A stretch of DNA of 64,000 nt from Sporopachydermia quercuum. Lineage: Eukaryota. The notes under the pieces were generated by a model that was given only the letters and a program-made list of their open reading frames with translations, had not been told where the DNA came from and ran no database searches. Of this stretch, positions 2,504 to 43,927 are shown piece by piece (positions within the stretch are counted from its first letter, which is position 1; each line of letters begins with the position of its first letter). The stretch covers positions 128,138-192,137 of the forward strand of contig BCGN01000004.1 of assembly GCA_001599295.1 (NCBI GenBank). The letters run 5' to 3'. The translations under genes were made by a program, and so were the position numbers.

Positions 2504-3532
2504 TGGGGTTTAATGCAATCATGTGCGTTGTTTTGCAAATTGTGCATGATACTGCAGGGAACTGCAAACAGCTTCTGTAATAATGTATAGTACCTCGAGA
2601 TTTAAAGAATTTGTATTGGAAAATGGATCAAACTTGCGGAAAGAAGTCAGATTCTGGTGATTAGGAAATGGAATGGAAATGGCACGGAAATGGGATTGGA
2701 AGTGGATTAACTGAATGTTAAGATCAGCAAGTTGACTGCAAACGGGCCTGGCTTGTTGCATGGGAATGGATTTAGTATTTTATCATTATTATTATTATTA
2801 CTATTATTATTTATTGTTGTTATGATTATTATCGTTATTATTACGGTTTCTAGTATATTTATGCTGTTGTATTTATTATTAATCTTATGATGTTTACTGT
2901 CATTTATTGTTGGAAGAAAGGATTAGGTGGTAGGAGAATTGTATCTTTAGTTGATTTAACTTGTTTGGTTATTTAACATGAGTTTATTGATATAACCATT
3001 TTAGGACGTAAGGATCTTTAAAGCCAAAGTAGTTGTAAATTGGAAGTTTAGAAGTTCTGGCGAAGGAAGACTTCTGGAGACCTTGTGACGGGCCAATTGT
3101 ACAGTTTAAAGAGAGAAGGTCCTGTTTCATGAAATCAACTGAAGGTTCACTAGTTTTGACTGACATTCACATTTAAATCAAGTATAGCACAACACAACGT
3201 GGCATATTATATACGATTTATGAGGTTGATCATTGGAGTTGATCATTGGAGTTGTCAGAGTATAATTCTCAATTCTAGTAATCAGGAGTAATAATCGTCA
3301 TTCATTATTACGTTTCCCATNCAATCCAACTGTTGTTGATAGTTCTATTAGTTTATTATACACATTTCCTATCTTACTGTCCATCTGCTTCTCTATCTAC
3401 ACTCTAAATTGTATCATAGCTGAAGCCTATATAGCCTGCAGTAGCCTATTATAGCGCGTAACCTAGCCCTTTATAGCCTGCCATTCCTAGCTCACAATGG
3501 CAATAGTAGCAATGTGCCTTGTTGAAAATTTC

Positions 3533-4757
3533 CTATAAACTTCTTATAGCAGAAGACATTGTCTCGTAGATTCCTAAGAAAATAGCCCCACCAGCACTAA
3601 TCCACATAGTACGAGGCCCAACACCTTTCCATAATGCACCAATGCCTTCCTCGCGAACTAGACTTCTCCCCATCTTGAGAAACGACACTTTGTCACCATG
3701 AAGCATGATACGTGTCTTAATCACATCTAATGGAGTAGTCAGAGCTGCGGCCACACCTCCAGCTACTGAACCACAGGCTGCGCCTTGTATAGGAGTGGCT
3801 CTTTCTTGATTAAAGTATGCAGCAGTTCGTTTCTTCAGATATTCATATAGAGGATACTGCAGAACCGTGAACGGAACGTCTCTGGCAATAGTGCTTAGCC
3901 AACCACGATAGAGACCTTTAACACGTCCTTCTCCAGATTGATTGTTCCAGACGGATTTGAATGTATCCCAAGAAGAGTTATAACGGGCAACTTGAGTTCT
4001 CTGTTTAATAACTTCAGCGGGGACTCGCACTAAGCAAGCAGCGATTTCTCCCATTGAGGCGGAAGCCATGTGAGTTATTGAATCACGAGCTTGTTGTGGC
4101 AGGGATAAATGAGAAAACACTGGCGCTAAGTACACCTTTGAATACTCGTATGTGATGAAGAAAAAAGAGGCTAAAAAGTTAGTGGATGATGCAAAGATTA
4201 AGAGCAAGAGCAAGAGCAAGAGCAAGAGCAGGTTATTGAATGTTATGTAATTCGTAGGTATCGTAACTTAAGCTGAGATACACCAAAAAGTAATAGAAAA
4301 TGAACTTACCACTAGGAGCAGAAGCAACCGTTATACTTCCCAAACCTTTGTAGATGCCACGCCATCCTCCATTTTTGAAAAAGCCCCCTTTGGCTTGAAT
4401 TCTTGTTTTTATTGTATCAATAGGGAAGAATGCAATGTCAACACTGACTCCTGCTGATGCACCACTCTTCGCAAAAAATAGATAACGTTAGTAAAACATG
4501 CAGGAGATCAATAGATGAAAATATAATGAGCTTGAAGGCAGTTACAATAGGATTATAAGCCATAAAACACATCAACTGTTCGTTTGGGAAACATAATGAG
4601 TTGGAAGGTATCATTGTAGCATTATACTTTTAAAGCAGCATGTCGAAATTGGGTAATTGGGAGAGATGTCAATGGCAATAGACTCAAAAAAAAAAAAACA
4701 TACCAGCAACGAAACCAAAAAGAGATTTGGAGTCTTTTGAGTAGTTTCCCCACTCAT
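3533..4757 (-). CDS. PET8: Mitochondrial S-adenosylmethionine carrier (3 exons, 282 aa)
   Basis: Exons 4757-4704, 4466-4310 and 4170-3533; introns GTATGT..TACTAAC..AAG and GTAAGT..CACTAAC..TAG. Spliced protein has FFPIDTIKTRIQAKGGFFKNGGWRGIYKGLGS, VRVPAEVIKQR and TTPLDVIKTR carrier motifs. Confidence 0.93.
4200..4229. repeat. (AAGAGC)5 microsatellite inside PET8 intron 2
   Basis: aagagc repeated five times; it produces the spurious poly-Leu start of the 3533..4225 ORF. Confidence 0.85.
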
Positions 4758-27314: not shown

Positions 27315-28640
27315 TCATACACTACTGAACTCATCCACACTTCTCAGAGAATTATAATGCTCTCCTAATCCGTAAACATGTTTATAATATACAATTTTCA
27401 GCTCAGGTTTCTTTCCTTCTTCGTTAAACCTCATTTCATCTTTACCATCAATTAAAACCAGTACAGGACACTTAAAAACTCTAGCTAATGCATATATCTC
27501 ACAGTTTCCACCCCATACAGCAGTATGCTCTAATTCATGGCAATAANTATCAATGTCTTTAACTATCAATGTTTCTTCATCTAAAAGAAAAGGAGTGAAC
27601 AAATCAGGGTTCTTTTTGATATATTCGGCAGTTAAATGACGTAACGAGGATACTGATTGAGCTATGTTATGCCGTTGAAGTAATTGATCACTGATGGAAG
27701 AGTATAAGCAATGGCCGTCAGGGATGATCTGAATATTATTATGTTAGTAACAATGTTGAAATATGAGTATGAATGGATCAAAATAAGCTGGCAAGTAGGA
27801 TAAACAGTAGGAGTAATAAATGAGGAAATGAGAAAACATGAGTGGATTATAAGATGCATGTACCTGCAAATTTTTCAACTTGCTGATAATGGACATTTTA
27901 CTCCTACTCTGTTCCACATACATGCTGCATTGCTCATTCACATGCTCATTCTCTCCGTTTCCTATATTATCATCCAAATTCCACCTTTCCTTCCTGAATA
28001 AAAAACGAAAAAATATAACAATGCTTACATCAAATTGAACTAGACCGTTCAGCTGACAGTATTCATCTACTTTTTTCAGCTCTAATTCCCTTAGATTTGG
28101 CTGATTCTTGGCTTCTTCTTCGGCTTCTTGTCGTAGTTTTTCAAGCTGCGCTTGTTTTCTTTCCTTTCTTTCTTTCTGTCGGTTCTTCCTTTGTTTCAAT
28201 GGCTGTTCGTTTATTTCGCTCTGTGGATTTTCTTGAACTTCCGCTGTTTGTTGAGGGTTGTTCAACTTTTCTAATTCTAGCTCTGCTAGTAATTTGGCAG
28301 CATTCAGCTCATCAGAATCTTCCGGAGAAATATCTCCAACAGGTTCTGGTTCCGGTTCCACTTCCAAAACAGCGGAGTTTCGGTTATATTTGAGTTCCAA
28401 TTCTTCTAACTGTAATTCATGCTTACGTAGCTGCTCAGCTTCCATTGTTTCGCATCTTTTCAGCAGCTCTTTTCGTTTTTTCCCCGAGCCTTTTGCTTGC
28501 TTTTTCAATCCTGTTATTTGAGAAACCAAATCGCGCCTCTCTTTCCTCTGCAAAGAAAGCACCTCTTCCTTAGTTGTCTCATAGGAAGAAGTAGAATTAG
28601 GTACTGATTCGCTGGCCACAGAAGATTCTTGTTCAGCCAT
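27315..28640 (-). CDS. OTU2: OTU-domain deubiquitinase Otu2/OTUD6 (2 exons, 341 aa)
   Basis: Exons 28640-28029 and 27728-27315; 300-nt intron GTAAGC..TACTAAC..CAG. Splicing restores FD|IIPDGHCLY (catalytic Cys), and exon 2 carries WGGNCEI and YGLGEHYNSL. Confidence 0.93.
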
Positions 28641-40466: not shown

Positions 40467-40914
40467 ATGAGTTTGACAGAGAATAATAAGAAATTAATTA
40501 GAGGAGCATCTGCTATAGGCGTTGTTGCATTGACTATCTATGCTATAAGCAAATGTCCTACAGTGTACAGTTCACTTTCAGGATGGTTTAACAAAAGCGT
40601 TGAAGTTGAGGATGCTTCTATCAAAGGGTTTGAAGGTGATATTGTAAGTGCCAACGATGAAACATTGAGAAACTGGCTAGCAAAGGTACGTAATAGATTT
40701 CTATTTTGGAAAGGTAGGAGCGAGCTTCATAGGATGAGTTCCTTTTTTATTTTTATTTTTTATGCAAGTTTGCACGTGCTAATTATGCTGTAATTATAGC
40801 ATATCTATAGATCAAGGATCAATACTAACTACTAATCTTTAGAATGATATTTACCCACCAGCAGGTACTACTGTTGAAGAACTACGCGGCCTGGTGAAGT
40901 CATTGGCTAATTAA
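40467..40914 (+). CDS. 96-aa protein: N-terminal TM helix plus Ish1/HeH-like helix-extension-helix (2 exons)
   Basis: Exons 40467-40685 and 40843-40914; intron GTACGT..TACTAAC..TAG. Spliced C-terminus SANDETLRNWLAK|NDIYPPAGTTVEELRGLVKSLAN. Confidence 0.72.
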
Positions 40915-41588
40915 GAAATAATTAATGAGTAAATGTGGTGTGAAAGGTTAAACAGTTGGNGATCGATTGAGAATTTTTAATAACTGCTGCCTGAATAGTA
41001 ATGATAGAAATGTATCCTAAGAGTAACCCACCAGTAAAGATATCAGTAGAGGTGTCAGTAGACGCAAGGAAGGGGAAAAGCAGTATCAATGAATGCCTAA
41101 TACCAGTAATTCGTTTCGATTTATTCTCGTTTCTGATATTCATTTAGTTTAAGATCTTCAGGTTGTTGTTTTGTTACCTTGGGATTTATCAAATCTCCTT
41201 CAGTTTGAAGAAATCCAAACTTTCCTGTTTTAAGGTCGACTTTTACTTTAAAATACGACAGCGGTTCAAATCCACACTGTCCTCTTATGTAGGTAAATCG
41301 AATGTGTGATATGCCTGAGGTGGTTCCTGATCAGCATTGAAGCTACCATTTTACTGTTAGTTGTACTAAAGTATTTCCACTGACAGAGATTATAATTAAT
41401 ATCCGAAAATAGCTATCATTATCAATACTAACTAAGGATGTAGAGTTCATGTCGTATCTTCTCTTTCAAGTATAGTTATACAAAATGATTATTAATTTTT
41501 CACCAACCGAGCTTTCCTTTCACTATCAAGTTTTCTAGTAGCGAACTTGATATTCCCTATATTTTATTTTCTATTTCTTTTATTTCTT

Positions 41589-42810
41589 CTATTTTTTATT
41601 GCTAACTTTTCTTTCCCATTGCTTTAACCCTCTAACAAACAATTCCTTATCTACTCCTTGGACATAATCATCTACATATACAAAATGAACCCCATACTCT
41701 TCTACTTCATTATTTCTCATCTCATCGTCAAAGAATACCATCTCCTCAAATTCATCGCCTGTGACTTTACCCAGTCTTCTGAAATGTGCCTTTTTTGACC
41801 CTGTTCCCCATTCCATATGGTCAAACCATTGAATGGCAGGTTTATTGTTGATGAACAGTCCTTGTAGAATAGCTTGTGCAGTATCAGGAGTAGGCGTTCT
41901 GCTGGCAGAAACAACTTTCACACCTTTGGTTTTCAGATGGATTATTATTTCTCGGACATCGGGAAAGAAATCTACTTCAGTGTTAGCTCTATCTTTCACT
42001 TTACCTCTAGATGCTATGATAGGAGTATATAGGCAATCGCAATAGTGCTGAAAATGTTAGTATCAGAATCAGATATTTGGTGTAAAGTGGAGAGTTGCCG
42101 ATAGGGCGTTGATAGGAAAAGATAAATGAGAATATAAATGGCATAGTAGTTGAGAGAATAAGCCTTTGGATATCGAATGAAGGGTATAGTACAGAGTGAG
42201 CGACAGTTCAGCAGAAAGTGATGAGGAATGATTGAATTTTTGAACATTGAATTGACTTGCTGTATTGGAAGGTAATATAAGTTGTACAGCTCATTTGAAC
42301 ATATCCAAGATTCTATAGAGCAACTCAATCCCGACTGAATGGCTAACAATTAGTTCCCGTTATCCAGACAGTTCATCCTTCATCCAATGGATCACTATGT
42401 TGATACCAACAGAAACGAAAAATCTAATGCAATTTTTTTTGCAGATTATAACGAATCTGTCCTAACTACTGCGGAAAGTCATTTATGAAACTATAGAATG
42501 TACTTGATATGATTTAATGCTCTGAAGAACACACCAATCACTCGTTCGTACCCTCCATTGCCATTGTACAGTCATATCTCCATTCTACCTTGAGCTCATC
42601 TCAGCAAATCAAATACTTACAGCTAATCTTTTGGTTAGTACCCTTTGAAACAAACCCTCAAACTGAAAAAATGCTACACGTAAGACTATTCATAACATTC
42701 ATCGTCTTCTTCTTCTACTTACGCCATAATGTATAATCAAGGTCAAATACAACTACCTTTGGATAGCTAGTGATATCCAATGAATCAAAATCCGTATTGT
42801 TTCTGCCCAT
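41589..42810 (-). CDS. MDP1: Magnesium-dependent phosphatase 1 (HAD IIIC; YER134C-like), 3 exons including a 2-nt micro-exon, 182 aa
   Basis: Exons 42810-42723, 42622-42621 and 42047-41589 give PKVVVFDLDYTLWPHYCD, SASRT, GSKKAHF and MVFFDDEMRN. Confidence 0.9.
42621..42622 (-). other. 2-nt micro-exon (CT) of MDP1
   Basis: Minus strand reads TACTAAC-caaaagat-TAG|CT|GTAAGT; it completes the CCT Pro codon and the reading frame. Confidence 0.85.
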
Positions 42811-43927
42811 TGTGAAAAAAATGGATAGGTGATATGCAGCTAGTGAGATTAAGCCAAAACGTAGAGCCATTATTTGATTGACGAAGCAAATCAAATGAAA
42901 ATAATGGAAAAGGCGGAGGAGAAGAAGCGGAAGTAGGGAAAAGAATGAAAGAGAGGAAAGATGAGACTGCAAAAGAAATTTAAGGTTATTATTTAAAGTT
43001 TGGAAATAAGTGGATGATTATACATTGACTTCAAACAGTTACTTAGAATGATTATTTGTTCTACTATGTTTTAATCAGAGCTATACTAGGAGTAGATATT
43101 CTTGACTGAAATAGGAAGTACTGGGAGTTCTAAATGTTTTGTACTTTTTGAGTCAGATTAGTCAGAGATCGGAGGCATTGAAGTATCAAAGGAAGAGGCA
43201 CTAACTACTGTTGGGTTATCTAGATCAATTCAAGCTTTTTAACTTCAAACTCAAAATAAACTTGAGGTAACTTAATCCTACAATCCCGCAAGAAAATGAC
43301 ATGAGAGTGCTGCAATAATGAAAAGTTTATCAATTGTATATAGCAAAATTTACAGCTTTTTAGTAATAAAATAGGGGAACTAACTTTCAAAAAACGGCCT
43401 TTTTCATTATTTGCAGTCATTTCCGAAACGTTTTTTGATTCAGTTTGATGACTAGCACCTGGTATCAAATAAACCTAAATAACTCCGATGCATTAAACTC
43501 GCATTTCTGCACAATTTTATTTCCTGCCNTTAAACTCAATTATCAGCTCCGAAACAACTAAATAACTCTTTCTTCTTTCTATTCATTTCATTCTGAAAGT
43601 AATACAAATATAGCATGAAAATACGTAGAATGAGCCATTTTCAATCTTATTGTCGTGCTTTAACTATGTTGGCCATGATTTGCGTATCAGTATACATATT
43701 TTTTCCCAGTAGTTAATGGATTCACTAAAATGACATACAGTGCTGATCCGGTGGTCTATGTTTTAGTAACTATCACCAACATATTAACGGAGGATCACTG
43801 ACCAGAATTCATGAACTTGACAATGTTTTGACCCTATTTGCCCCAGCAGAAATGCCGTTTCTTGTTTTATCGATTTCTCGATCATCGTCTGCATTGAAAA
43901 TCCCGACCCTTCCTCCCCAGTAGGCCT

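Follow-up and report, generated by a model that had tools for sequence, protein, structure and literature searches.

Ultra-short exons have already been documented down to 1 nucleotide (nt), in plants and in Fusarium, and here we describe a gene of the budding yeast Sporopachydermia quercuum, MDP1, that is predicted to carry an internal coding exon of 2 nt. The gene lies in a stretch of 64 kilobases (kb) of contig BCGN01000004.1 (assembly GCA_001599295.1, positions 128,138 to 192,137), which is called the window below and whose first base is position 1 of all coordinates. The closest described systems are as follows. In the CYP621A P450 genes of Fusarium, a 1-nt exon was found by an exon-phase argument and confirmed by SRA reads, with 20 to 24 orthologous genes, and it was presented as the second such case after Arabidopsis APC11; exons of 2 to 5 bp are also known in Arabidopsis, Drosophila, and human (PMC12940212). 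The 1-nt exon of APC11 is constitutive, was shown with reporter constructs, and was argued to depend on intron definition and ordered intron removal (PMC4674806). Yarrowia lipolytica, a yeast with many more multi-intron genes, has a 4-nt internal exon in YALI0E34170g that was validated by two cDNAs and is the shortest in that species (PMC2911113).

Two further arrangements involve consecutive splicing reactions in yeasts. Zero-length exons, which are pivots of recursive splicing, have been described in SPNCRNA.445 of Schizosaccharomyces pombe and in BOT1 of Cryptococcus neoformans (10.1101/226894, 10.1101/224170). In stwintrons, found for example in Lipomyces, an inner intron interrupts a splice signal of an outer one, and the two are removed by consecutive standard reactions (PMC7138796). 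A literature search, with most subscription papers and supplements outside it, found neither a yeast with a 2-nt exon nor a paper on the introns of MDP1.

On the evidence presented below, we consider it likely that the S. quercuum locus is a working MDP-1 gene whose mRNA keeps the 2-nt exon CT between two ordinary U2-type introns, the splice being predicted from the DNA.

Layout of MDP1 and the predicted 2-nt exon

The region from 43100 to 41300 was read on the minus strand, and every boundary was recomputed by script. Exon 1 (42810 to 42723, minus strand, 88 nt) starts with the ATG at 42810 and encodes 29 residues ending in ...DLDYTLW. Its 3' end reads ...TTA TGG C, in which the final C at 42723 is the first base of a split codon. 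The exon must end at this base, in phase 1, because GTAAGT follows and its frame meets a stop two codons on. The last exon (exon 3; 42047 to 41589, minus strand, 459 nt) is preceded directly by TTTTCAG, starts with CAC in phase 0, and consists of 152 codons, the first of which encode H-Y-C-D, plus a TAG stop at 41591 to 41589. A second in-frame ATG at 42868 to 42870 (minus strand), 60 nt upstream of that of exon 1, would extend the protein by 20 residues, most of them hydrophobic; the choice between the two would depend on where transcription begins.

The phases of the two outer exons are incompatible (1 versus 0). Joined directly, they read WPLLRLPIYSYHSI, which corresponds to 14 wrong codons followed by TAG at 42009 to 42007. 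The 675-nt gap between them contains the composite signal TACTAAC-N8-TAG/CT/GTAAGT (slashes mark predicted splice junctions), which divides it into two introns, both on the minus strand. Intron 1 (42722 to 42623, 100 nt) has its GTAAGT donor at 42722 to 42717, TACTAAC at 42640 to 42634, and a TAG acceptor at 42625 to 42623, 12 nt from the branch A at 42635. Intron 2 (42620 to 42048, 573 nt) has its GTAAGT donor at 42620 to 42615, a single TACTAAC at 42062 to 42056, and a CAG acceptor at 42050 to 42048, 9 nt from the branch A at 42057. Each has a complete set of signals (GTAAGT, TACTAAC, and YAG) and would be removed as an ordinary U2-type yeast intron.

The 2 nt left between these introns, CT at 42622 to 42621 (minus strand), are predicted to be an exon from the frame, the splice signals, and the conservation of the family. 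Together with the C at 42723 they form the codon CCT (Pro), and their inclusion yields a coding sequence of 549 nt and 182 codons without an internal stop, split into 88, 2, and 459 nt. If kept in the mRNA, CT would thus supply the proline of the W-P step downstream of the catalytic DxDxT motif and would place the last exon in frame. The site therefore combines incompatible flanking phases, an adjoining canonical acceptor and donor, and an upstream branch site of its own, all of which are features of a micro-exon. An earlier note on this DNA had listed the phases, the splice signals, the two intron lengths, and the stop that follows direct joining, and all of these statements were correct on recomputation.

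The donor at 42722 and the acceptor at 42048 come into frame only via the 2-nt exon. When single introns with GT or GC donors and AG acceptors were enumerated, 28 solutions kept an open frame, none of which paired this donor with this acceptor. Solutions that retained DLDYTLW used acceptors within the last exon and lost at least 11 residues. Enumeration of two-intron solutions with GT..AG as the sole requirement gave at least 476 in-frame combinations, a number that is uninformative without signal strength.

One of the single-intron solutions has to be weighed in its own right. A 709-nt intron from 42722 to 42014 would bypass the CAG that lies 9 nt from the branch A of intron 2 and would keep W-P (encoded by CCA), followed by S-R-G-K. 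This intron is in frame, has GT-AG ends, and would use the same TACTAAC with a UAG acceptor 43 nt from the branch A. It would also accord with Saccharomyces cerevisiae, in which acceptors less than about 10 nt from the branch are poorly used. Its product loses 11 residues as well as the original Pro codon, and the 11 skipped codons are open and resemble the family, with Y-C-D and with proline at the family spacing.

The W-P residue and the MDP-1 family

By its predicted sequence, the gene product is an MDP-1/Acid_PPase magnesium-dependent phosphatase of the HAD superfamily. The last exon alone matched the Pfam family Acid_PPase (PF12689) with 130.4 bits (cut-off of 27; E value of 7.7e-38) over profile positions 29 to 169 of 169. 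Exon 1 matched positions 2 to 15 (24.7 bits; E value of 2.3e-5), which when taken alone is below the 27-bit cut-off, and it contains HAD motif I, DxDxT, as D-L-D-Y-T. An alignment of the window protein with 12 relatives (13 sequences) has R50, T51, K85, H88, and F106-D107-D108-E109 as invariant residues, all of them in the last exon. We take these to be HAD motifs II to IV, comprising the S/T of motif II, the Lys of motif III, and the acidic pair of motif IV.

The same alignment places the first residue of the last exon, a histidine, in the column right after the W-P of D-L-D-Y-T-L-W-P-x-W-x-D, a motif that ten homologues keep with W-P. Exactly one residue is missing between the matches of exon 1 and the last exon, and proline fills this gap. 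Among 276 family proteins that were fetched, 200 carry DxDxTxW; the Trp is followed by Pro in 175 of these and by P-x-[WYF]-x-[DAN] in 171. The proposal of the earlier note that CT restores DLDYTLWP is supported by this conservation, and its broader claim, that an MDP1-family protein cannot be encoded without the 2-nt exon, is supported by the single missing residue and by the scores that follow.

A hidden Markov model (HMM) of 192 homologues was used to score five products; only the named rivals were scored, not all of the enumerated two-intron combinations. The product containing the 2-nt exon had the best score (230.8 bits), followed by direct joining with a +1 shift after CCA (224.0 bits), direct joining with the C dropped (220.6 bits), the single intron to the AG at 42014 (201.8 bits), and the last exon alone (180.1 bits). 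An earlier HMM of 71 sequences gave the same order, with scores of 216.4 (2-nt exon), 189.0 (single intron), and 168.8 bits (last exon alone). The single-intron product is therefore 27 to 29 bits lower with either model, which indicates that the 11 codons it discards are family-like coding sequence.

The second and third products in this ranking represent a different explanation, in which the outer exons are joined directly in the mRNA and a programmed +1 shift of the ribosome, at CCA or after it, brings back the frame. Such shifted proteins still score well against the family, but they fall 7 to 10 bits below the product of the 2-nt exon and lose the P-x-[WYF] spacing. No known shift site was recognized at CCA, although no search for one was made. 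A shift would also leave the internal splice signal unexplained, and we regard this explanation as extremely unlikely.

Splice signals, sequence accuracy, and relatives

The pattern TACTAAC-N(3-30)-AG-NN-GTAWGT had one match in the 64-kb window, both strands included, and this match is the MDP1 site. Dinucleotide shuffles of the window gave a mean of 0.01 matches, with a match in 1 of 100 shuffles. The TACTAAC..TAG/CT/GTAAGT signal is thus more than chance, and a single 709-nt intron would leave it without explanation. A looser pattern, CTAAC..AG-N(1-12)-GTAWGT, also matched only the MDP1 site in the window, compared to 0.95 matches expected, and gave no second micro-exon candidate.

The need for CT would disappear if 1 or 2 nt had been gained or lost at an outer junction by an assembly or sequencing error and the gap were truly one ordinary intron. 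The assembly is imperfect, given the 19 isolated single N scattered over the window (e.g., at 3321, 27547, 40960, 43529, and 44638); none lies within 41589 to 42870. Contigs from two DNA runs, X1 and X2, which belong to different studies and have word depths of 33 and 102, each covered 41400 to 43000 in one piece and agreed with the window at every base, with no differences and no insertions or deletions. Either run may be the source of the window itself, so their identity is weak but consistent evidence against an error of 1 to 2 nt. Two other runs were not informative: X4 gave one identical 166-nt contig at a depth of 2, and X5 gave only low-complexity matches at 41558 to 41597. The outer junctions are not homopolymer runs, and a complete set of internal splice signals (branch site, acceptor, and donor) would not arise from an error there. 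We give an assembly or sequencing error almost no weight.

Five other introns were located in the window, and four of them, in three genes, are backed by Pfam matches in the exons. Two belong to a mitochondrial carrier gene (3533 to 4757, minus strand; Mito_carr matches in the exons), in which removal of introns 4703 to 4467 and 4309 to 4171 gives a 283-codon frame without a stop. The second of these has a CACTAAC branch site and an acceptor 8 nt from the branch A. Lists of open reading frames (ORFs) hold this gene only in pieces. An OTU protease gene has a 300-nt intron (28028 to 27729, minus strand) with a nonconsensus GTAAGC donor, and its OTU domain starts at the acceptor. The ORF upstream reads about 100 nt into the intron, so that the listed ORF of 298 amino acids is a false extension, and the OTU domain is in another frame; the exon encoding it contains the single N at 27547. 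In an Erg28-like gene, a 113-nt phase 2 intron (45672 to 45560, minus strand) separates matches to positions 36 to 65 of the Erg28 profile from matches to positions 68 to 108; positions 1 to 35 were not located, which makes a further upstream intron possible. The fifth, a probable intron of 199 nt (40644 to 40842, plus strand), lies in a small ORF (40467 to 40915, about 59 plus 23 codons) without a Pfam match and has GTAAGT and the tandem TACTAAC-TACTAAT. This ORF converges on the 3' end of MDP1.

The donors of these five introns are GTAAGT, GTATGT, or GTAAGC, and their branch sites are TACTAAC or CACTAAC. Both MDP1 introns have full consensus signals of this type. The acceptor G of the five introns is 8, 14, 15, 18, or 21 nt from the branch A, and the 12 and 9 nt of the MDP1 introns fall inside this range. 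With an acceptor at 8 nt apparently in use in another gene of the window, the 9 nt of intron 2 do not place its CAG too close to the branch to be used in this yeast. Given this distance, the lower HMM scores, and the unexplained internal signal, we consider it very unlikely that the CAG is bypassed in favor of the single 709-nt intron.

The other genes in the window, including LEU2, a hexose transporter-like protein, cytochrome c heme lyase, GET2, and mitochondrial DHODH, are typical of budding yeast. No entry of the protein collection is more than 82% identical to the LEU2 protein, whose named matches are spread across many budding-yeast genera.

Relatives of the MDP1 protein are more distant. 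An exhaustive protein search found 538 at E values of 0.001 or below, the best with 48% identity, and no match at 1e-30 or better was found among 1.84 billion representative proteins. A word-based protein search with the last exon gave a single match, from Rhizophagus clarus (34%), and a profile search gave at best 44% identity; among named proteins, that of Cyberlindnera jadinii is the nearest (about 41%). A scan of metagenomes yielded 80 MDP1 loci with at most 44% identity, 71 of which carry the motif. Two of these, fungal loci L006 (2850 to 2990) and L022 (2900 to 3020), have a single intron in the Trp codon (TG/.../G CCN), 2 nt upstream of the split in the S. quercuum gene, and a third, L005, has an intron five codons downstream, after P-F-W-V-D. 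The remaining motif-bearing loci read straight through the W-P site. Several of the nearest relatives (P0002, P0004, and P0005, with 45 to 48% identity, and P0009 and P0016) are ORF-style calls that start within or just before the last-exon match, and the genes of these five may contain an intron near the W-P site that was missed by the caller.

Several observations weigh against the 2-nt exon. None of the 71 motif-bearing metagenomic loci, all of them distant (44% identity or less), has an intron in the Pro codon, and the arrangement does not yet have comparative support among the relatives reached, which are at most 48% identical as proteins and 44% as metagenomic loci. At 44% identity or less, the metagenomic loci say nothing on this lineage. 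In the HMM comparison, the product of the 2-nt exon leads the two frameshift-type products by only 7 to 10 bits. Intron 1 also contains an AAG (G at 42628) 7 nt from its branch A and 5 nt upstream of the TAG acceptor; use of this AAG would produce a 7-nt exon with an in-frame stop, and a share of the transcripts may be unproductive for this reason. Finally, an intact second copy of the gene beyond the 64-kb window would allow the copy described here to be a decaying pseudogene.

In that last case the outer exons would simply be out of frame, and the internal signal would be a relic or chance. A pseudogene or dying copy would fit a structure that is not seen conserved in the distant relatives, and it would fit the divergence of the protein from all of the representative proteins searched. 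Against this, neither exon is damaged, the start and the stop are in place, none of the invariant family residues is missing, and the 152-codon last exon retains a Pfam score of 130 bits. The internal signal is perfect and is placed exactly where two bases are needed, and the bases it delimits begin with C. We therefore regard loss of function as quite unlikely and retain a working gene with a 2-nt exon as the preferred reading.

Intron removal and comparison with known systems

The donor of intron 2 begins only 15 nt downstream of the branch A of intron 1. Two spliceosomes could not occupy both introns together at this distance, so the introns would be removed one after the other, each by intron definition. 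It is reasonable to infer that such an exon needs intron definition and successive removal, much as the earlier note had proposed. Intron 1 would most likely be removed first, because all of it has been transcribed 573 nt ahead of the acceptor of intron 2; the second reaction would then start from ...GGCCT/GTAAGT, an ordinary donor. In the reverse order, a normal acceptor would be left as well. Such stepwise removal would resemble recursive splicing, with the difference that two bases are retained at the pivot.

Skipping of CT, by joining donor 1 to acceptor 2, or use of the AAG in intron 1 would lead to a premature stop. mRNAs with early stops are expected to be substrates of nonsense-mediated decay. 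Skipped or mis-spliced products are presumably removed in this way as splicing errors rather than as part of a designed switch; the on/off switch for MDP1 that the earlier note had raised, in which skipping of CT is coupled to this decay, is speculation. A further idea is that the crowding of the branch site and acceptor of intron 1 and the donor of intron 2 within 20 nt forces a strict splicing order and acts as a kinetic gate: whenever the order failed, through pairing of donor 1 with branch 2 or use of the AAG, an early stop would lead to loss of the mRNA, and MDP1 output would be set by splicing fidelity or transcription speed. We consider such a gate unlikely, but if it were real, the shortest coding exon known in budding yeast would also be a portable test of spliceosome proximity.

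No structure that could impose an order of removal was found in RNA folds of intron 1 with the pivot (z score of +0.75) or of intron 2 (z score of -0.93), neither of which was better than shuffles, and neither intron had a match in Rfam. A match to snoU85 inside the last exon, on the other strand, stayed below the gathering score of 41, with 17 bits (E value of 0.1), and was taken as chance.

The simplest history of the locus would be the gain of the short 100-nt intron beside an older long one, since its removal leaves an ordinary phase 0 intron after the Pro codon. Duplication of one intron to give the other was considered and rejected: the local alignment score of the two introns was 17, compared to a shuffle mean of 17.7, so they have no similarity beyond chance.

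The MDP1 exon has consequences for genome annotation. The earlier note stated that gene predictors would miss an exon of this size, and this is true; standard pipelines will call MDP1 as a truncated or frameshifted ORF. Similar structures may hide in related yeasts, because several of the nearest relatives are ORF-style fragments whose start falls within the last exon. The introns of budding yeasts have near-invariant signals and are removed by the best-understood spliceosome. A natural 2-nt exon in this setting, with a branch site 15 nt from the next donor, would offer a clean system in which to study how successive spliceosomes use the same short RNA.

In the CYP621A genes of Fusarium, as in MDP1, incompatible flanking phases within a conserved motif of a fungal gene point to an ultra-short exon (AG/N../GT) that is hidden in an apparent single intron and is missed by predictors (PMC12940212). 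The Fusarium case differs in that the exon is 1 base rather than 2 and that the host is a filamentous ascomycete with degenerate splice signals, whereas the case of MDP1 is made from the DNA of one genome. Arabidopsis APC11 shares with MDP1 an exon below codon size and the same model of successive removal, but it is a plant gene, and its exon was shown experimentally (PMC4674806). The exon of YALI0E34170g is likewise an ultra-short exon of a budding yeast (Saccharomycotina), although it has 4 bases and lies in a different gene (PMC2911113). It is the shortest internal exon of this group that we found in print, and the predicted 2-nt exon of MDP1 is probably the shortest coding exon so far proposed in budding yeasts.

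In S. pombe and C. neoformans, as predicted for MDP1, what looks like one yeast intron of a few hundred nt has an acceptor beside a donor within it and is removed in two reactions (10.1101/226894, 10.1101/224170). These are not budding yeasts, and in them nothing is kept at the pivot and the mRNA is identical either way, whereas CT would be kept in MDP1 and the frame needs it. MDP1 is therefore not a member of the zero-length recursive class, as the CT between AG and GT is needed in the mRNA. Stwintrons are also complex intervening sequences of yeasts that are removed by consecutive standard reactions (PMC7138796), but a stwintron is ruled out for MDP1, in which all six signals are whole and the introns are side by side, not nested. 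With exons of 1 nt already documented in plants and Fusarium, the MDP1 case is an extension of a known phenomenon.

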